In this document: positions 1 through 6,491 of the stretch, in pieces | Position numbering within the stretch: the first letter of the stretch is position 1 | Layout: every line of letters starts with the position of its first letter | Virus record (IMG/VR): IMGVR_UViG_2700989228_000001 | Coordinates: 1 to 6,491 of that record | Length of the DNA: 6,491 nt | Strand: one strand, 5' to 3' | From: a virus | Made by a program: the position numbers and the translations under genes | The notes under the pieces: model-generated | Database searches by the model: none | The model's input: the letters and a program-made list of their open reading frames with translations, nothing else | What the model was told of the DNA's origin: nothing

Positions 1-76
1 AGCCTGCTAAGTGATGGATGATTTCGAGGTGTCCGCTGCTGCTCTACGGCGGCTGCTTCGTCCTCTGGATGATGGG
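1..76. repeat. Terminal direct repeat, copy 1 (wrap-around of a circular molecule)
   Basis: 1-76 is identical base for base to 6416-6491. It contains the last 14 nt of the SSB-like CDS (stop TGA 12-14) and the first 63 nt of the next CDS. The repeat therefore continues the reading frames rather than bounding an element. Confidence 0.95.
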
Positions 77-277
77 TCTGTGTCTTTGGTGGTGACGTAT
101 CGCCGTCATGATGATTATATGGCCTATGAGCGTGAAATTGCGGATCTTCGTGCTAAGTGTAAGCGTATGGATCAGGATCTTGCTAAGTGGGCTTTGATGG
201 GCAATCGGTACATTGAATGCCTGGATGATATCAAGTATCTGAAATCTGTGCTTGATTCCTACAAGATATCTTATTGA
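14..277 (+). CDS. Hypothetical protein, 87 aa, charged and probably helical, no recognisable motif
   Basis: ATG 14 overlaps the upstream stop as TGATG. An in-frame GTG at 11 is an alternative start (GTGA overlap). The ORF stays open to TGA 275-277 and shares the T-ending codon bias of its neighbours. Confidence 0.7.
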   Translation: MDDFEVSAAALRRLLRPLDDGSVSLVVTYRRHDDYMAYEREIADLRAKCKRMDQDLAKWALMGNRYIECLDDIKYLKSVLDSYKISY

Positions 278-295
278 CGGAAGGGGAGTGGGTGT

Positions 296-1327
296 ATGTG
301 TGTGCAGCGTCGGCCTGTACCGAAGGATATGCCTACTCCCCTTGGTTCTATCCCGTATGGTCGTTTTTCTCGTTCTGTGGGGGATATCGTCTATTCTTTG
401 GATATGTTCCGTGCTCGGTTTCCTCTGCGCTGGGGTGCGCTGCGTATCAAGTCCGCTGCCGGTGAGTTTCTCCCTTTGACTGATGATAATGTCTATAAGG
501 CTGTCTGTGATTCTATTGTCCTTCCTTTGTTTGAGTTGGTGAACTATGTACCGTCTGGCGGTGATGCTCGTCGGCGTGGTGCCTTGCATTGGTGGTCTTT
601 TGATGGTGTCATTCTCACGCTTTACAAGTATCGTCCCTTCGGTATTCCTGATCCGGTCTATTCATTGACGTTGGAATTTAATCCTAATAAGCGTCTTGAT
701 AATCCTGTGATACTGGCTCTCATTGATCGTATCAAGTCTGTGTGTGCTGATCGTTTTTGCTGGTGCAACACTCGCTTGGACTATACTATCGATGTTCCAT
801 ATCCTATCTCTGATGTTCGGCTACTCTCTCGCAAGGTTGGCAGCACCTATGAGGGTACTTATTACTTTGGCCGTCGTGGTGATTCCGGCTATACTCGTGT
901 TTATGATAAGCGGCGCCAGATGATGGAGGTCTTTCATATTGATATCGGTACCGATGTTACCCGTATCGAGTATGAGACCCGTAACGGTGTCCCTTGTGTG
1001 ATGGATGCTCCTTATCGCCTTGGTGACCTTGGCAATTTTGGCGTGCTGCGGTATGTTCCCATGTCCGATTGGCCTGCGGCTCTTCGTTGCTATGATCCTC
1101 GCACGGCTCGTAAGATCAAACAAGATTGTTTGTATGCTATCTTTTTTGATGTGCAGATTTTTGATGATCTTCGGGATCAGTTTTTTGCTTATCTGGGCTT
1201 GTCCATGGATGATAACATTGATCGTATCGAGTCCCGCCGCCTGGACGAGGCCCAGCGTCTGGCTGAAGCTTCTGATCTGGAGCAGTTGGCTTCTTCTATC
1301 CGTAAGTTTGCAAAGGTTGCAGATTGA
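296..1327 (+). CDS. Rolling-circle replication initiator, Rep_trans-like (pT181 RepC / phage replication initiation factor type), 343 aa
   Basis: SD AAGGGGAG (281-288) lies 7 nt before ATG 296. Motifs recalled for Rep_trans: RLDYTIDV, YYFGRRGDSGYTRVYDK, TRIEYETR. It sits next to the SSB-like gene, as in inovirus replication modules. Confidence 0.8.
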   Translation: MCVQRRPVPKDMPTPLGSIPYGRFSRSVGDIVYSLDMFRARFPLRWGALRIKSAAGEFLPLTDDNVYKAVCDSIVLPLFELVNYVPSGGDARRRGALHWWSFDGVILTLYKYRPFGIPDPVYSLTLEFNPNKRLDNPVILALIDRIKSVCADRFCWCNTRLDYTIDVPYPISDVRLLSRKVGSTYEGTYYFGRRGDSGYTRVYDKRRQMMEVFHIDIGTDVTRIEYETRNGVPCVMDAPYRLGDLGNFGVLRYVPMSDWPAALRCYDPRTARKIKQDCLYAIFFDVQIFDDLRDQFFAYLGLSMDDNIDRIESRRLDEAQRLAEASDLEQLASSIRKFAKVAD

Positions 1328-1333
1328 TTATAT

Positions 1334-1407
1334 TGCGGGGTAGTTTAGAGGCAGAACGGTAGGCCCTACACCTACAGATGATGGTTCGATTCCATCCCCC
1401 GCCACCA
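1334..1407 (+). tRNA. tRNA with anticodon CTA (putative amber/UAG suppressor), CCA encoded
   Basis: Hand-folded cloverleaf. Acceptor 1334-1340/1397-1403: 6 Watson-Crick pairs plus a T1.C72 mismatch. T8 is present. D stem GTTT/GAAC (1343-1346/1354-1357); D loop AGAGGCA contains GG. Anticodon stem GTAGG/CCTAC (1359-1363/1371-1375). The 7-nt loop CCCTACA (1364-1370) places CTA at 1366-1368. Variable loop AGAT. T stem GATGG/CCATC with canonical T loop TTCGATT (1385-1391). Discriminator A1404, CCA 1405-1407. Caveat: positions 33 and 37 are both C, which is atypical. Confidence 0.75.
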
Positions 1408-1430
1408 TAAAGGAAGGTGTGTTATGAAAT

Positions 1431-2765
1431 ATGTTAAAAGGTCGCTCGCTAAGGGCCTGCGCTGCGCTGGTCGCTTTCTGCTGTTCCTTGCTTCTTGTCT
1501 CTATTAGACCGGCTGTTGCTGATGATACGTCTGATTATCTTCTTGGTACTTGGTATTGGGATTTCGGTGCTTCTCGTAGCGATTGGCCTCAACTTAATAG
1601 CGTTTATCAGTCCGACACTACTATGACGGCTTATGGTGTTAATGCTATGCCGTTTAATGGTAAAAATCTCGGTGGTGGTGATTCCCTTACTGATTATGTT
1701 GTTGGTAGTCTTGTTTCGAAGCGTTTTCAGTGGACTAATCCTATTACTTTTTATCCTGATATTGTTCTTTCTTCTACTTTTCAGGCTCCGCAGGTTGCTG
1801 ATAAGAAGCTTCATATGCTTGTAAAGTTTGGTGCTGGTTATCATATCAATTCTATTTCTAAGCTTGATTCTCCCGTCCATGGTTTTTGGTATGTTGGTAG
1901 CCAACCTTATTATGATGATAATTATGCTAAGGTGACTTATATTGGTTCTTCTGCTTGGCCTTCTGGGCTTAATTTGCGGTATCAAGAGCCTGGTTCTTCT
2001 TCGTCTACTAATATTTTCGCTGATTATACTTCTGGTTATTGTTATCGTGTGGATTTTGATGCTCCCGGACGTTATCCTGACGGTTCGTTTGCTATAACCG
2101 GTCTTGGCTTGTGGTGTGAAAACTGGTGTAGTCAATATAAGTCTGTTGCTGGTGCTATGGAAACTATGGGCTTGATGGTCGGGTATCTTGTTTGTTGGGC
2201 TGATACTGGCGTTGCTGCTATTGACGATGCTATCACAGATATTCTAACCCATGTTGCAAAGATAGATGGCAATGTTCAGTCTATCTATTCCGTCCTTACT
2301 AAGCTGCTTGCTGTGGCTAAAGAGATTGGTATTGATACTGATACTATGGTCAAGCTTCTGACTTCCATCAATAGTAATGTTGCCTTGTTGCAGTCCGATG
2401 TATCTGGTATCTATGAGCTGCTTAAAACTGCTTTGGCTGATGAATCTGCTGAGTTGGATAAGAAAACTGAGCAGGCTGCCGAATCCATTATGCAGCGTAC
2501 TGACAGTGAACAGTATTGGAGTGATAAGAACCAAGATAATTTCAATGCTTTGAACATTGATAATTTTTCTTTTGGTGATGGTGTTGTTTCTGCCCTTGGG
2601 ACTGTCGGAGGTCTCTTTTCTGGTCTCTGGGATGCGCTCGGTGATGGTATCATTGTCTATACGTTCCCGTTGATGTTGGGCGTGGCCCTTGTCCTTGTTG
2701 GCCGTCTTGCTCGTTCGTCTGGTAAGGGACATAATAAGTCTGGTTCCGGTGGTGATGATAAGTGA
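1431..2765 (+). CDS. Secreted, C-terminally membrane-anchored protein, 444 aa; candidate adsorption/minor coat protein (g3p-like role)
   Basis: N-terminal signal peptide (MLKGRSLRACAALVAFCCSLLLVSIRPAVA/DD). Aromatic-rich N-terminal half, helical central part, C-terminal TM (IIVYTFPLMLGVALVLVG) followed by a basic tail. This is the largest structural-module ORF. A competing ATG at 1424 in another frame is discussed in findings. Confidence 0.85.
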   Translation: MLKGRSLRACAALVAFCCSLLLVSIRPAVADDTSDYLLGTWYWDFGASRSDWPQLNSVYQSDTTMTAYGVNAMPFNGKNLGGGDSLTDYVVGSLVSKRFQWTNPITFYPDIVLSSTFQAPQVADKKLHMLVKFGAGYHINSISKLDSPVHGFWYVGSQPYYDDNYAKVTYIGSSAWPSGLNLRYQEPGSSSSTNIFADYTSGYCYRVDFDAPGRYPDGSFAITGLGLWCENWCSQYKSVAGAMETMGLMVGYLVCWADTGVAAIDDAITDILTHVAKIDGNVQSIYSVLTKLLAVAKEIGIDTDTMVKLLTSINSNVALLQSDVSGIYELLKTALADESAELDKKTEQAAESIMQRTDSEQYWSDKNQDNFNALNIDNFSFGDGVVSALGTVGGLFSGLWDALGDGIIVYTFPLMLGVALVLVGRLARSSGKGHNKSGSGGDDK

Positions 2766-2974
2766 TAGAAGCCCTTCGATCTATTCTTGATTTTTTCAAA
2801 ACTCTTCTTGACTTGGTCATGTATCTGGTCAATGGTCTTGCTCAGCTGTTTCTTATGATCCCTTCGGCTTTCAAGATGCTTACGTATTCTATCGGCTTTC
2901 TGCCGTCTGTGCTGCTGGCCTTCGCCGCTGTGGCTATCACGATCAGCATTGTTTATCTCATTATTGGGAGGTGA
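2762..2974 (+). CDS. Small hydrophobic membrane protein, 70 aa (two predicted TM segments)
   Basis: GTG start overlaps the upstream stop (aaGTGA). SD-like GGTGGTGA at 2748-2755. T-ending codon bias. Confidence 0.65.
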   Translation: MIEALRSILDFFKTLLDLVMYLVNGLAQLFLMIPSAFKMLTYSIGFLPSVLLAFAAVAITISIVYLIIGR

Positions 2975-2979
2975 TTCCG

Positions 2980-3138
2980 GTGACTTTCAACGATTGGCTT
3001 AACTGGTCTCTTTCGGTCATTGTTACCGGTGTTAATTGGCTCCGGTCTTGTACCTTGCTCGGTGTGCCTATCCTGTATTTGCTGATCGGTATCTTTGTGA
3101 TGGGGGTGGTGATTCGTGCGATTCCTTTTAGGGCTTAG
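2980..3138 (+). CDS. Small hydrophobic membrane protein, 52 aa (below the ORF-track cutoff)
   Basis: SD GGGAGG (2966-2971) lies 8 nt before GTG 2980. Translation: MTFNDWLNWSLSVIVTGVNWLRSCTLLGVPILYLLIGIFVMGVVIRAIPFRA. It ends at TAG 3136-3138, the only TAG stop in the genome. It overlaps the next gene by 23 nt. Confidence 0.5.
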   Translation: MTFNDWLNWSLSVIVTGVNWLRSCTLLGVPILYLLIGIFVMGVVIRAIPFRA

Positions 3139-3718
3139 TTTGGCTCTTCTCTGTATTTTTCCGGTCTATGCTTCCGAGGCCCCGGCGGATGGTTATCTGT
3201 CTGATGAAGAGCTCGCTTCTGTTGTCGGTGATGATGCCGATGGCGGTGTGATCTATGATGAAGATGGCAATGTTGTCTATGCTGCTGATGGTATTGCTCC
3301 TTCGGCTGCTGCCGGTGATCTGAAGTATGCTCCTTATATTGGCTCTTGTTGGATCAAGGGTACTGCTTCCGGTTTAGGTGAGGTGTATATCTATGTTCCA
3401 GTTTCTTCCCGTGGCAAGTGGGGTACTACTTCTTCTGGCTATCTTTGTAATGTTGATTCTTCTTCCGTTTCTGGGATCATGTTCAACGGTCAGGGGACGC
3501 AATATGCTTTTACTTGCTCTGGTTTTTCTGTTCCTCGCTACCGTTTGCATGACGGTTCAAGCTATCAATATTCTGATCTCTATTTGACTGTCACGGATAG
3601 TAACGCTCAGGTGGCTACCAGTTTTCCGCCGTCTGTCCCTGTTGCCGACGTGTTGCCGTATGTCACTGTTGTTCTTCTGATGGGGGTGATTCTGTGTTCG
3701 ATGCGATCACGTCATTGA
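3116..3718 (+). CDS. Secreted type-I membrane protein, 200 aa; candidate minor virion/assembly protein
   Basis: GTG start is preceded by GGTGGTGA (3105-3112). Signal peptide MRFLLGLSLALLCIFPVYA/SEA. C-terminal TM VTVVLLMGVILC followed by the basic tail SMRSRH. Confidence 0.85.
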   Translation: MRFLLGLSLALLCIFPVYASEAPADGYLSDEELASVVGDDADGGVIYDEDGNVVYAADGIAPSAAAGDLKYAPYIGSCWIKGTASGLGEVYIYVPVSSRGKWGTTSSGYLCNVDSSSVSGIMFNGQGTQYAFTCSGFSVPRYRLHDGSSYQYSDLYLTVTDSNAQVATSFPPSVPVADVLPYVTVVLLMGVILCSMRSRH

Positions 3719-3846
3719 TCGGTGAGGTTCCTGCTGGTTATGAGCCTCTTATTTATGCTCTTTGTGTGCCGTTCCTCATGTGGCTGCTCGGTCAGTTCTT
3801 TGGCATTCTATGGGCTTTGATGGAGGGTCTTTTCCATGTTAGATAA
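3694..3846 (+). CDS. Small single-pass membrane protein, 50 aa (below the ORF-track cutoff)
   Basis: SD GGGGGTGAT (3682-3690) precedes GTG 3694. Translation: MFDAITSLIGEVPAGYEPLIYALCVPFLMWLLGQFFGILWALMEGLFHVR. Stop TAA 3844-3846. It overlaps both neighbouring genes. Confidence 0.55.
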   Translation: MFDAITSLIGEVPAGYEPLIYALCVPFLMWLLGQFFGILWALMEGLFHVR

Positions 3847-3985
3847 TCTCAATGCAATCGTGGGGTTTGTCTTTTCGACTTGCTCCGATGTTCTGGCTTT
3901 GTATCTTGGTGGCGGGATCCTGACCGGCGTTCTTGCTATTTGGCTGCTCCGTAAGGTTTCTGCTCTCTTTGATAAGTTACGTTGA
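3836..3985 (+). CDS. Small coat-like membrane protein, 49 aa (TM plus basic C-terminus)
   Basis: SD GGAGGG (3822-3827) lies 8 nt before ATG 3836. Translation: MLDNLNAIVGFVFSTCSDVLALYLGGGILTGVLAIWLLRKVSALFDKLR. Stop TGA 3983-3985. Confidence 0.65.
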   Translation: MLDNLNAIVGFVFSTCSDVLALYLGGGILTGVLAIWLLRKVSALFDKLR

Positions 3986-3999
3986 AAGGAGGTTTTTTC

Positions 4000-4167
4000 A
4001 TGGCTGCGCTGCTTACTACTCTGGGTGAGGTTGTCTCCGCTGTTATGACCTACATCGGTACTATTTGTACCACTATTGTTGGTCAACCCCTGCTGCTGAT
4101 GACTACCGGCTTCCTGCTGATCGGCGGTTGTATCGGTATCTTTGGCCGCCTGCTCTCTAAGGGTTAA
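4000..4167 (+). CDS. Coat-like protein paralog 1, 55 aa (candidate major coat protein, no cleavable signal peptide)
   Basis: Strong SD AAAGGAGG (3985-3992) lies 7 nt before ATG 4000. The ORF-track start at 3982 is a TTG located before and partly inside the SD, so it is unlikely. Translation: MAALLTTLGEVVSAVMTYIGTICTTIVGQPLLLMTTGFLLIGGCIGIFGRLLSKG. It has an amphipathic N-terminus, a TM segment and a short basic tail. The gene pair is followed by a strong terminator. Confidence 0.8.
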   Translation: MAALLTTLGEVVSAVMTYIGTICTTIVGQPLLLMTTGFLLIGGCIGIFGRLLSKG

Positions 4168-4224
4168 TCCCTGCCGTTTTATCTCTCAGGTTAGGAGGTG
4201 AATTTGTAGACTACTGTCACTGCT

Positions 4225-4392
4225 ATGGGTTCTCTTTTGAAGGATCTCGGTACCGTCGTTGATGCTGTCATGGGGTATATTGGCAATATCTGTTCCACTA
4301 TTGTCTCTAATCCTCTGTTGCTGATGACTACCGGCTTCCTGCTGATCGGCGGTTGTGTCGGTATCTTCGGCCGTCTGCTCTCTAAGGGTTAA
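4225..4392 (+). CDS. Coat-like protein paralog 2, 55 aa from ATG 4225; possible 62-codon form from TTG 4204 through in-frame TAG 4207-4209
   Basis: Translation: MGSLLKDLGTVVDAVMGYIGNICSTIVSNPLLLMTTGFLLIGGCVGIFGRLLSKG. It aligns colinearly with paralog 1. The only SD (AGGAGG 4193-4198) is 26 nt from ATG 4225 but 5 nt from TTG 4204, whose next codon is TAG. Confidence 0.75.
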   Translation: MGSLLKDLGTVVDAVMGYIGNICSTIVSNPLLLMTTGFLLIGGCVGIFGRLLSKG

Positions 4393-4398
4393 CCTGCT

Positions 4399-4443
4399 GC
4401 CGGCCGCCGTGCATTATTTCACGGCGGCCGGTATTCTATTTTC
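4399..4443 (+). terminator. Rho-independent terminator after the coat gene pair
   Basis: Perfect 12-bp stem CCGGCCGCCGTG (4400-4411) / CACGGCGGCCGG (4420-4431). The loop is 8 nt (CATTATTT). A T-rich tail TATTCTATTTT follows. Confidence 0.8.
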
Positions 4444-4459
4444 GTGGAGGTGATTTTTC

Positions 4460-4609
4460 TTGTCTGATTTTTTGACTTCTTGTTTCGATGTTCTCTTTGA
4501 CCTTCTTCCTCGTATCGATAATATTTTGATCGTTCTTCCTTTTTGTGCTATTTGTTTGTCGGTTGTAATTTCTCTGACTTTCAAATTGATTCGAGGTGAC
4601 TACTGGTAA
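4460..4609 (+). CDS. Small single-pass membrane protein, 49 aa (below the ORF-track cutoff)
   Basis: SD GGAGGTGAT (4446-4454) precedes TTG 4460. Translation: MSDFLTSCFDVLFDLLPRIDNILIVLPFCAICLSVVISLTFKLIRGDYW. Its stop overlaps the next start as TAATG (4607-4611). Confidence 0.6.
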   Translation: MSDFLTSCFDVLFDLLPRIDNILIVLPFCAICLSVVISLTFKLIRGDYW

Positions 4610-5289
4610 TGACTTTTCTGATTTTTTGTTTTGTCTTTGTTGTTTTCTGCTTTTCCTTTCATTTTCTGACTAAGAAATATATCAATCCTTTTCGTTTGAT
4701 ATTTGTTTTTGGTAAAAAGGGAAGTGGTAAATCTACTCTACTTCAAAAACTTTCTTCTGATTATCTCCGTAAAGGTTGGATAATTTATTCTACCGAAGTT
4801 CCTGATGAAGGTAGAAGTTTTGATGATCCTATGCTTGATGAGATGAATTATATTGATCCTCGTCAGATCTACAAATATAAGTTTCCACCTAAGTCTTGTA
4901 TTTTCATTGATGAGGTTTCTTTGATCTGGGATAACCGCAATTTTAAGAATATGGATCCTAAAGTTGTTGCTTGGTTCCGTTACCAGCGTCATTATAAGGT
5001 TCGTGTCTATCTTTTCAGCCAGTCATTTGACATTGACAAGAAGCTGCGTGATCTCTGTGATGAAATGTATATTGTAAATAAGTTTGCTCGTGTCCTGGTT
5101 CGTGCTAAGCGTATCATTCGCAAGCCTGTTGTGGTGCATCCGTCCCCGGAGGCCCCGGCCCGTATTGACGAAGATCTCGTTGTTGATGGTCCTTTGATGG
5201 CTTTCTTTGGTGGCCGTATCTATGCCAGTATTCCGCATTGGTCTAAAGTCTATGATTCCTTCAAGCCTCTTGATGATCCCTCAGATTGA
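4609..5289 (+). CDS. Zot/pI-like P-loop NTPase, 226 aa, filamentous-phage assembly ATPase with an N-terminal TM helix
   Basis: Walker A GKKGSGKST (aa 35-43). Walker B CIFIDEV (aa 97-103). The downstream motif QRHYKVRVYLFSQS...IDKKLR resembles the Zot-family HRH...D...TQ block. Residues 3-20 form a hydrophobic helix. Confidence 0.85.
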   Translation: MTFLIFCFVFVVFCFSFHFLTKKYINPFRLIFVFGKKGSGKSTLLQKLSSDYLRKGWIIYSTEVPDEGRSFDDPMLDEMNYIDPRQIYKYKFPPKSCIFIDEVSLIWDNRNFKNMDPKVVAWFRYQRHYKVRVYLFSQSFDIDKKLRDLCDEMYIVNKFARVLVRAKRIIRKPVVVHPSPEAPARIDEDLVVDGPLMAFFGGRIYASIPHWSKVYDSFKPLDDPSD

Positions 5290-5340
5290 ACAAAATAAAA
5301 ATTTTTCTCCAATCCTATTTTGTCTCGAAGACGAGAAAAG

Positions 5341-5375
5341 GGAGGGGCTGCCCGTCTGGGCTGCTCCTCCTTTTT
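5341..5375. terminator. Probable bidirectional intrinsic terminator between convergent + and - transcription
   Basis: 13-position stem GGAGGGGCTGCCC (5341-5353) / GGGCTGCTCCTCC (5358-5370): 11 Watson-Crick pairs, 1 G.T and 1 mismatch. Loop GTCT. Flanked by an A-rich run (GAGAAAAG, ending 5340) and TTTTT (5371-5375). Confidence 0.6.
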
Positions 5376-5481
5376 CGATGGTCTCGCTGCATTGTGAAGG
5401 CCGTGCCTGGTCTCGATCTGATCGCTGTTTGCCTGGTATCCTTATGGCCGTAGCCATCTTCCCGGCGGGTCCGGCGTGGCC

Positions 5482-5517
5482 CATGAAATCCCCCGGTATA
5501 ATATTGGGGATTTCATG
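5482..5517. promoter_or_regulatory. Perfect 12-bp hairpin with TATAAT exposed in its 12-nt loop; candidate complementary-strand origin or packaging signal
   Basis: CATGAAATCCCC (5482-5493) / GGGGATTTCATG (5506-5517). The loop is CGGTATAATATT, with TATAAT at 5497-5502. It lies in the only long non-coding region and has no adjacent U-tract. Confidence 0.4.
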
Positions 5518-5543
5518 TGCATATATGTACTTTTTCCTTTCCC

Positions 5544-5810
5544 TTATCGTGGCCATTTTAGCCCACGTGGAAGCCCTAATATGTAGTCGGCGGATACTTC
5601 GTATAGTAGGCATAGCGTGCGTAAGTGTTCAATAGGAAGGGGGTGTTTCCCTGCTTCATATTTGGCATAGTAACTTCTTTCAGTTTTTAGAATTTCTGCT
5701 ATTTCTGTTTGTGTCATGTCTTTATCTGTTCTTAACTCTTTTAGTATTTCGTTGTATGGTTTGCTCATTTTTTCTGCTTCTCCTTTGTTCATATTTACTG
5801 AATGTATCAT
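5544..5810 (-). CDS. XRE-family helix-turn-helix transcriptional regulator (phage repressor-like), 74-88 aa
   Basis: HTH_XRE-like core MTQTEIAEILKTERSYYAKYEAGKHPLPIEHLRTLCLLYEVSADYILGL. It is the only minus-strand gene and is more AT-rich than the rest. An internal ATG at 5768 (MSKPYNEILKELR..., 74 aa) is preceded by GGAG and is a plausible true start. Confidence 0.85.
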   Translation of the reverse strand: MIHSVNMNKGEAEKMSKPYNEILKELRTDKDMTQTEIAEILKTERSYYAKYEAGKHPLPIEHLRTLCLLYEVSADYILGLPRGLKWPR

Positions 5811-5827
5811 TTGTTACCTTTTTTGTG

Positions 5828-5857
5828 TTGACGTGGGTCACTTCTGACTCTTATAAT
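5828..5857 (+). promoter_or_regulatory. Sigma70-type promoter for the + strand replication module
   Basis: -35 TTGACG (5828-5833), 18-nt spacer, -10 TATAAT (5852-5857). It lies in the divergent gap between the XRE gene and the + strand operon. The inverted repeat GGGTCA (5835-5840) / TGACCC (5876-5881) brackets the -10 box. Confidence 0.6.
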
Positions 5858-5881
5858 TGTTTTTGGGGTGATATATGACCC

Positions 5882-6178
5882 TTGCCGAAAATTACAGATC
5901 CATCGGCAACGTTGGTACAGTTCGGCAATTCTATTTTTGAAAGGTGGAAAGCAAGTATGTCTATTTATGAGTATTCTTCGGTTCCCGAAAAGGTGGCGGA
6001 TGAGCGATGCTTGGCCTATCGTCGGGCTATGGCTGATGCGTCTGATGTAAATGAGGTGATTTCTGTTTTGGATGAAGCTGCTGTAGATCCTATGGTGTCT
6101 GTGGTTGCTTTTGGTTTTCTCTGCGAGTATGCCAGGCGTATGTTGGTAGTGTTTCGTTCGGTACATTTTGACATGTGA
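5882..6178 (+). CDS. Hypothetical protein, 98 aa from TTG 5882 or 73 aa from ATG 5957
   Basis: The frame is open with T-ending codon bias. ATG 5957 has the better SD (AAGGTGGA 5942-5949, 7-nt spacer). TTG 5882 has GGGGTGA 10 nt upstream, very close to the predicted transcript 5' end. Confidence 0.65.
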   Translation: MPKITDPSATLVQFGNSIFERWKASMSIYEYSSVPEKVADERCLAYRRAMADASDVNEVISVLDEAAVDPMVSVVAFGFLCEYARRMLVVFRSVHFDM

Positions 6179-6192
6179 AAGGAAGGTAAGCT

Positions 6193-6429
6193 ATGACAGT
6201 AAAAATCATCGGTAAGTCCCATCGTAAGGGTGTTTCCAAGAAGGGTAACGACTACGATTTCAATGTCGTGTATTTTGTTGGCCCTGATCGTGGTGTGACC
6301 GGTATGAAGGGTCTGGAGGCCATTCTTGACCCTGTTTCTTATCCTCTGGAATCTATCAATGTAGGTTCTGACTATGAACTGGAGTGGGGGCCGGGTGGTT
6401 CCCTGGTCTCTTTCAAGCCTGCTAAGTGA
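6193..6429 (+). CDS. ssDNA-binding protein, g5p-like, 78 aa
   Basis: SD AAAGGAAGG lies 6 nt before ATG 6193. Its size, position beside rep, and resemblance to recalled Ff gene V protein features support the call: GVSKKGNDY vs GVSRQGKPY, and C-terminal GSL...FKPAK vs GSL...LVPAK. Confidence 0.7.
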   Translation: MTVKIIGKSHRKGVSKKGNDYDFNVVYFVGPDRGVTGMKGLEAILDPVSYPLESINVGSDYELEWGPGGSLVSFKPAK

Positions 6430-6491
6430 TGGATGATTTCGAGGTGTCCGCTGCTGCTCTACGGCGGCTGCTTCGTCCTCTGGATGATGGG
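6416..6491. repeat. Terminal direct repeat, copy 2 (wrap-around); includes a duplicate 5' fragment of the 14-277 CDS (6429-6491)
   Basis: Identical to 1-76. Confidence 0.95.

Follow-up and report, generated by a model that had tools for sequence, protein, structure and literature searches.

Bacterial translation is taken to start with a single initiator tRNA, whose anticodon CAU reads AUG or a near-cognate codon. In large phages such as the Lak and crAss-like ones, recoding under genetic code 15 or 4 is accompanied by many in-frame TAGs in late genes, which are read by elongator suppressor tRNAs. An initiator tRNA given a CUA anticodon (metY CUA, with a UAG-start reporter) is charged in E. 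coli by glutaminyl-tRNA synthetase (GlnRS), becomes formylated and initiates at UAG (the system of Varshney and RajBhandary, described in PMC6393288). The determinants of the formylase are the 1x72 mismatch and, along with it, pairs 2:71 and 3:70, and the mismatch disfavours EF-Tu; when formylation is limiting, an initiator with a 1x72 mismatch can leak into elongation (PMC6393288). The DNA analysed here, called the window, is a stretch of 6,491 nucleotides (nt) from a virus (positions 1 to 6,491 of IMG/VR record IMGVR_UViG_2700989228_000001). It carries an inovirus genome with a tRNA gene of anticodon CUA and a small gene, coat paralog 2, in whose leader a TAG codon lies at 4207-4209. Translation of coat paralog 2 probably starts at this TAG, which would be read by an initiator-type tRNA(CUA) that the phage itself encodes.

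Gut inoviruses of Clostridia probably carry an initiator-derived tRNA that has switched its anticodon at least eight times, each switch being matched by a change in the start codon of a coat gene, and the coat protein would begin with Gln, Glu or Thr in place of Met. Initiation at TAG 4207 by tRNA(CUA) is the mechanism best supported by the comparison of genomes, and the pair appears to belong to a widespread and previously undescribed family of matched tRNAs and start codons.

The leader of coat paralog 2 and its counterparts in relatives

The coordinates given for the leader in an earlier sequence-only reading are all exact. AGGAGG occupies positions 4193-4198 of the + strand. It is part of the Shine-Dalgarno sequence (SD) AGGAGGTGA at 4193-4201, which is the sole ribosome-binding site of coat paralog 2 and is invariant in the clade of the window. 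A single frame then runs through GTG (4198-4200), AAT, TTG (4204-4206), TAG (4207-4209), ACT ACT GTC ACT GCT and ATG 4225 into the gene. The ATG has no SD of its own, as that reading had remarked: it lies 26 nt from AGGAGG, and there is no second SD in those 26 nt. The 62 residues that it had given for the product are obtained when counting from TTG; the count from TAG is 61. The full proposed coding sequence (4207-4392, + strand) is composed of the TAG, five codons for an N-terminal extension, TTVTA (4210-4224), and a core of 55 codons plus TAA (4225-4392). The internal Met encoded by ATG 4225 aligns with the start of coat paralog 1 (4000-4167, + strand). The canonical ATG of the latter is situated 7 nt after AAGGAGG and serves as an internal control for normal initiation.

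TAG 4207, the proposed initiation codon, lies 8 nt after AGGAGG. Of the TAGs on the + strand, just two both lie 4-12 nt downstream of an SD and lead into an open frame of 20 codons or more, and the one at 4207 alone runs on into a recognised gene. GTG 4198 sits within the SD and is too near to it to act as a start. TTG 4204, 5 nt after AGGAGG, is invariant in the CUA clade. It is probably either a chance occurrence in a spacer rich in T and G, or a start that is futile or a fallback. The codon at its position is TCC, GAT, TTC, CGC, TGC, TTT, TCT, GCC or CTT in most sister clades and TTG, CTG or ATG in a minority of them.

The arrangement AGGAGGTGA..TTGTAG is unchanged in 13 of 13 contigs of the window's clade. 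The TTVTA peptide is constant over the eight leader haplotypes, which differ at two sites only, both of them synonymous third positions (GTC/GTT and GCT/GCA/GCG). This clean count was made on the CUA clade alone, as codon-position counts on pooled classes mixed unrelated leaders. Homologous T-rich extensions are encoded by relatives. Public protein collections contain homologues of paralog 2, which often have 62-67 residues and N-termini such as MFSEATTTAMGSLLK, and the TAG of the window aligns with a conserved Glu in their extension. By this comparison, the five codons between TAG and ATG 4225 have the behaviour of coding sequence.

To sample relatives, IMG/VR was searched with a DNA pattern for the 3' half of the tRNA, collections of metagenomes and genomes were searched with a Zot alignment, and further proteins were looked up. 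Searches of IMG/VR with single proteins (coat, Zot) found no close relatives, and one Zot-alignment search gave only distant relatives lacking the tRNA, which served as controls. This sampling gave 53 tRNAs of the family, carried by more than 50 related inoviruses of Clostridia, with eight anticodons: CUA, CUG, UUG, UUC, CUC, AGU, CGU and UGU. In the relatives the tRNA gene occupies the same place as in the window, just after the Rep gene. At every locus that includes the coat region, a codon exactly complementary to the anticodon follows an SD in frame with a coat gene, and there is usually no canonical start at that place.

The pairs are CUA with TAG (the window and loci L005-L010 and L185), UUC with GAA (L015-L023, L323, L324), CUC with GAG (L137, L198, L201, L208, L210-L212, L326), CUG with CAG (L002, L108, L110, L193, L195, L268, L288, L303, L316, L318, L319), UUG with CAA (L025, L192, L196), AGU with ACT (L001, L194, L202, L204, L206, L265), CGU with ACG (L027, L186, L308), and UGU with ACA (L028, L187-L189, L210, L325). 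The wobble base co-varies too, as seen in ACT/ACG/ACA, GAA/GAG and CAA/CAG. The tRNA(UUC) group has GAA exactly at the position of the window's TAG, and tRNA(CUA) is present in 8 of the 8 genomes with a TAG leader that include the tRNA region. The check proposed in the sequence-only reading, inspection of the TAG column across homologues, was run in this way: in sister clades a sense codon replaces TAG and tracks the anticodon of the tRNA. For UUG/CAA, NGU/ACN and other pairs, the N-termini of the proteins had allowed a prediction ahead of retrieval of the DNA, which then confirmed it. Thus P0013 (MFDQTTT…) has tRNA(UUG) and CAA, P0008 has tRNA(CGU) and ACG, and P0005 has tRNA(UGU) and ACA.

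In 27 of 29 distinct leaders the distance from GGAGG to the cognate codon is 7-8 nt, with the internal ATG 22-29 nt away. Where the start is a canonical ATG, in paralog 1 and in the extended coat gene of relatives lacking the tRNA, the SD spacing is the same. In many lineages (for example L028, L002, L108 and L137) the frame contains no canonical start from the preceding stop up to the cognate codon, and several genomes have an in-frame stop, or no start whatever, upstream of it. In a census, 42 coat-family open reading frames (ORFs) at tRNA-bearing loci had the cognate codon alone at 5-11 nt from the SD. At loci lacking the tRNA a canonical start was present in 155 cases and absent in 20, nearly all of the latter being truncated fragments of tRNA-bearing clades or cases with a weak SD; the census found no complete tRNA-less genome with a non-canonical leader. 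A normal ATG stands at the cognate position in the tRNA-less relatives L003, L029, L032, L050-L053, L058, L062, L197, L214, L217, L222, L231, L235, L237, L238, L258, L262 and L263. The only tRNA-bearing loci with no visible cognate site, L190, L199 and L207, are contigs that end before the coat region.

The pairing is not confined to coat genes like that of the window. In L002 (GenBank PQ006129) the region 4389-4763 is unannotated, and this gap contains, at 4409-4717, tRNA(CUG) and directly after it a classical-looking major coat gene, quite different from the window's. The gene would start at CAG 4511, preceded by AAAGGGGG and 8 nt, and it has no canonical start with an SD.

Several further observations concern the family. 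L210 (3715-3789 and 8319-8392) and L211 each contain two inovirus prophages in tandem, and each prophage has its own pair: UGU with an ACA start on a gene of the coat paralog 2 type, and CUC with a GAG start on a coat gene of the L002 type. TTG or CTG stands directly before the cognate codon in several lineages, including L193, L198, L210, L268 and the window (4204), and in L195 (about 2350-2370) a canonical ATG is directly 5' of the cognate CAG despite the tRNA(CUG). A start-like codon at this place may be a transitional or fallback state of start-codon switching. At three loci outside the clear inoviruses, an initiator-type acceptor stem is likewise combined with a non-CAU anticodon: L133 (105-178, - strand; CAG, reading CUG; at a contig end), L151 (1115-1189; UAU, reading AUA) and the GC-rich L119 (386-459, - strand; CUG). 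The target genes of these three tRNAs were not found. The phenomenon may extend beyond inoviruses.

The phage tRNA(CUA)

The tRNA gene of the window is located at 1334-1407 on the + strand, with the anticodon CUA at 1366-1368 (ARAGORN; Rfam tRNA family, 51.5 bits, E = 4e-9). Its acceptor stem has a U1·C72 mismatch, which the Rfam alignment flags as non-canonical, followed by G2:C71, C3:G70 and G4:C69. Position 73 is A, and the CCA end is encoded. At positions 2-7, 66-71 and 73 (A73) it has the same nucleotides as E. coli tRNAfMet, the one reference tRNA whose sequence was verified against 5426 E. coli genomes. The overall identity is 64% to this initiator and 42-51% to E. coli elongators. When the acceptor and T-arm pattern GGTTCGANTCCNNNNCCCGCNNCCA was run against IMG/VR, it matched almost exclusively tRNA-Met(CAU).

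The anticodon of a methionine initiator, CAU, is absent. The architecture of an elongator, with a paired 1:72, U33 and a purine at position 37, is not found either, the window tRNA having U1·C72, C33 and C37. We infer from these features that the molecule works like an initiator yet is not tRNAfMet. The earlier assumption that it acts as an elongator does not agree with an initiator-type acceptor stem bearing a 1:72 mismatch.

All anticodon classes have one common tRNA body, and they are not copies of the host tRNA-Gln, tRNA-Glu or tRNA-Thr. The 1:72 position is U·C, C·A, A·A, G·A or U:A across the family and never G:C, and it is left unpaired by RNAalifold. All 28 aligned members have G2:C71 and C3:G70; the single exception among the parsed tRNAs is L206 (A2·C71). 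Compensatory changes occur in 16 of the 20 cloverleaf pairs among the 28 members.

Proposed initiation at TAG 4207 and the alternatives

In the proposed mechanism the phage would transcribe its own tRNA, a descendant of an initiator tRNA in which the anticodon CAU has become CUA, and a host synthetase would charge it. The amino acid is probably Gln, as suggested by the engineered E. coli precedent and by CUG being the nearest tRNA class (76% identity). The 1:72 mismatch, with G2:C71 and C3:G70, would allow formylation and keep the tRNA off EF-Tu. The tRNA would enter the P site of the 30S subunit on the TAG situated 8 nt downstream of AGGAGG, and translation would continue through TTVTA and Met 4225 to yield a coat protein of 61 residues whose first residue is not Met. 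Coat paralog 2 would then be made only with the phage tRNA present, and TAG would be a stop elsewhere.

TAG does appear to be an ordinary stop elsewhere in the window. It ends the ORF 2971-3138 (TAG at 3136-3138, + strand), and clades that have tRNA(CUA) and clades that lack it alike keep it as a stop there. The peptide that would result from read-through is not conserved as protein, and the codon falls where the next gene begins (GTG 3116). No other in-frame TAG was found inside the genes of the window. Recoding under code 15 was for this reason rejected, and the late-gene recoding logic invoked in the sequence-only reading is not supported. tRNA(CUA) is probably not an efficient suppressor.

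The sequence-only reading had also proposed that tRNA(CUA) reads TAG 4207 to give the extended coat paralog, and that its supply gates this form. It is very probable that the tRNA reads this codon, and probable that it does so as an initiator and not as a suppressor in the manner of code 15. The gating proposal stands in so far as the TAG is tied to tRNA(CUA) and the extension is coding; the suppressor role that went with it is not supported.

That role would have the host fMet-tRNA start at TTG 4204 and tRNA(CUA) suppress TAG 4207, giving a protein of 62 residues that begins Met-X-TTVTA. TTG is at a usable distance from the SD, 5 nt after AGGAGG, and does not vary within the clade; TTG, CTG or ATG also precedes the cognate codon in L193, L198, L210, L268, L192, L196, L201 and L195, and initiator-type tRNAs are able to leak into elongation. 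However, sister clades have tRNAs with sense anticodons and the matching codon at the same place, and most lineages keep this match though the preceding codon is not a start codon. A suppressor is needless at sense codons such as GAA, GAG, CAG, CAA or ACN, which argues for an initiator. Furthermore, a tRNA with the 1:72 mismatch, C33 and C37 is not expected to decode efficiently in the A site, and a TAG stop is kept by the ORF 2971-3138 with no other in-frame TAG in the genes. Initiation at TTG followed by read-through is thus unlikely as the explanation of the leader, and because TTG precedes TAG at a usable spacing it stays a minority possibility, perhaps operating beside initiation at TAG. 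It is less probable still that only the form of 55 residues is made, from ATG 4225, with TTG-TAG being a mini-ORF for re-initiation or 70S scanning, or the nonsense scar of a former extension, and the tRNA being unrelated. ATG 4225 is conserved, aligned with the start of paralog 1 and chosen by gene callers, and re-initiation after short ORFs in E. coli is described in PMC2268962. Yet TTVTA has been conserved with synonymous changes alone, and the extension is conserved as protein across clades. The start-stop arrangement is confined to the CUA clade, with sense codons at both positions in relatives, and the tracking of codon by anticodon in eight classes, 8 nt after the SD, would be left unexplained. 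The possibility of a hairpin that brings the SD near ATG 4225 was rejected, as the fold of 4168-4260 was no better than that of shuffled sequences (z = 0.24). Such a hairpin places the SD next to the start codon in T4 gene 25.

A non-translational role of the tRNA-like gene, as an integration remnant, a structure for replication or packaging, or a decoy for anticodon nucleases, is the least probable of the explanations, and a very doubtful one. The match in the leader would then be coincidental or an RNA-RNA contact. The unusual anticodon loops of the family (C33; a pyrimidine or G at 37) would fit such a role, and evasion of anticodon nucleases by phage tRNAs is proposed in PMC10264068. Against it stand the full cloverleaf, the encoded CCA and the abundant compensatory changes. 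An in-frame match of 3 nt at a fixed distance from the SD after every switch is what pairing on the ribosome predicts, not what an attachment (att) site or origin does. An attachment-site remnant in particular was rejected, since the tRNA gene lies inside prophages, between Rep and the next gene and not at an end, and its cloverleaf shows covariation.

A number of observations weigh against initiation at TAG 4207 by the phage tRNA. The anticodon stem of the window tRNA (A29:U41, G30:C40, G31:C39) has two of the three consecutive G:C pairs; all three are present in L137, L210 and L211, and fewer in other members. The D stem has U11:A24 rather than the A11:U24 of initiators, which is found in L208, L210 and L211. 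The anticodon loop CCCUACA (1364-1370) has C33 and C37, odd for any tRNA; two members of the clade, L005 and L008, have U33, and in the family position 37 is commonly a pyrimidine or G. A TTG 5 nt after the SD and directly before TAG is a feature of this clade alone. The name "coat protein" was assigned from size, predicted helices, the basic C-terminus, gene position and the terminator, and all of the evidence for the reading is comparative. Finally, by a loose automatic test, a site consisting of an SD and a coat-like frame is found at a random non-start codon with a chance of 0.137 per genome. As this background is not negligible, what carries the statistical weight is how often the anticodon has switched independently (at least eight times), for which the chance is estimated at roughly 0.137^8, or about 1e-7. 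The p-value of the automatic filter was not relied on because of the high background rate. The coat-like filter was also too strict, losing L002, L186, L288, L316, L318 and L319, all of which were seen by eye.

Genome context and comparison with described systems

The window represents a circular genome, about 6415 nt long, and has a terminal repeat of 76 nt. It is assigned to the inoviruses on account of its Rep, Zot, XRE repressor and small hydrophobic proteins. All genes lie on the + strand except that of the XRE repressor, which is on the opposite strand. They include a Rep_trans-like replication protein (296-1327, +), a protein of 444 residues, several small hydrophobic proteins, the two paralogs of 55 residues (4000-4167 and 4225-4392, +) and a Zot-type ATPase (4609-5289, +). 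T is abundant on the + strand (37%, with 18% A), and the trinucleotide TAG is three-fold depleted on it in all frames, with 33 occurrences against about 106 expected from base composition. The closest records in GenBank come from the faeces of pig, rodent and lemur and are genomes of uncultured gut Inovirus. Prophage copies were found in Clostridia, namely in Lachnospiraceae, Oscillospiraceae, Oscillibacter ruminantium GH1 and metagenome-assembled genomes binned as Selenomonadaceae.

Coat paralog 2 has the features of an inovirus major coat protein, being small (55-61 residues) and helical with a hydrophobic core and a basic C-terminus, GRLLSKG. The AlphaFold model is helical, with a predicted local distance difference test (pLDDT) score of 79 and helices predicted at residues 5-33 and 35-58. 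The gene lies about 200 nt upstream of Zot and is directly followed by a strong intrinsic terminator (4398-4433, + strand), with a stem of 14 bp containing 11 G-C pairs and then a T-run. The Ff phages have a similar terminator after the major coat gene. No match to a coat family was found in Pfam, PHROG, PDB or Foldseek, and the unrelated coat of L002 scored only 14 bits against PF25631, the cut-off of which is 27.

Other features lie elsewhere in the window. After the tRNA gene, the SD AAGGAAGG is followed by two ATGs in different frames (1424 and 1431, within 1424-1433). Only ATG 1431 opens the ORF of 444 residues, which has a signal peptide; the frame of 1424 ends at TAG 1505. Two elements were noted at 5479-5520 and 5828-5857: a 15-nt inverted repeat, GCCCATGAAATCCCC / GGGGATTTCATGTGC, in the intergenic region between Zot and the repressor, and the best of the promoter-like sites (TTGACG, 18 nt, TATAAT), which runs divergently from the XRE repressor gene. 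The two may jointly form an operator, promoter or origin region. An Rfam match to RsaE at 5286-5372 is weak (30 bits against a cut-off of 79), and the segment looks like a G+C-rich hairpin 3' of the Zot gene, not a small RNA.

If initiation at TAG 4207 by the phage tRNA is correct, a start signal has been reassigned by a natural family of initiator tRNAs with private start codons, here a stop codon. To our knowledge, such a reassignment has been built in the laboratory and is unreported in nature. Searches of the full-text literature, subscription-only papers excluded, found no report of a natural initiator tRNA with an anticodon other than CAU. The function of phage tRNAs would extend beyond codon supply or suppression, and eight orthogonal pairs of initiator and start codon, shaped by evolution, would be ready as parts. 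For gene finding the consequence is that coat genes are truncated or missed: the coat gene of PQ006129 is unannotated, and coat paralog 2 is called as 55 residues. Cultured lysogens exist, for example Oscillibacter ruminantium GH1 (L308, tRNA CGU, ACG start). Why the coat should be tied to a phage tRNA is a matter of speculation; timing, a non-Met N-terminus on a coat that has no leader peptide, prophage silencing and incompatibility between related phages might each be the reason.

Among described systems, the natural non-AUG starts GUG, UUG, CUG and AUU resemble the proposed start in being non-AUG codons at normal SD spacing. However, they are near-cognate to CAU and need no special tRNA, whereas TAG, GAA, GAG, CAG, CAA and ACN are not near-cognate to CAU and each has its own matching tRNA. 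Phage tRNA-Met(CAU) genes with initiator-type acceptor stems have the acceptor and T-arm signature in common with the inovirus family. They read AUG, while the inovirus family has lost CAU and its anticodon changes repeatedly. The large recoded phages likewise combine a phage tRNA(CUA) with TAG in the frame of a structural gene. The window differs from them in having a single TAG, at the initiation position, in keeping TAG as a stop, and in having sister phages that use sense codons in the same way. The start-stop mini-ORFs with re-initiation (PMC2268962) look similar to the window, where TTG-TAG comes right after the SD with an ATG 15 nt downstream. Unlike such systems, the window has relatives with sense codons and no start-stop, and the peptide between TAG and ATG is under constraint at the protein level.

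The engineered amber initiator of E. coli (PMC6393288) is compared with the proposed pair on the same points. In both, UAG would be read as a start at normal SD spacing while remaining a stop elsewhere, and both tRNAs have the 1x72 mismatch with the 2:71 and 3:70 pairs. The window tRNA departs from the engineered one in having two of the three G:C pairs and no A11:U24, and its charging and formylation are predicted from its sequence. The engineered system is man-made, whereas the phage pair is natural and phage-encoded, would serve a structural gene, and comes in at least eight versions of anticodon and start codon.

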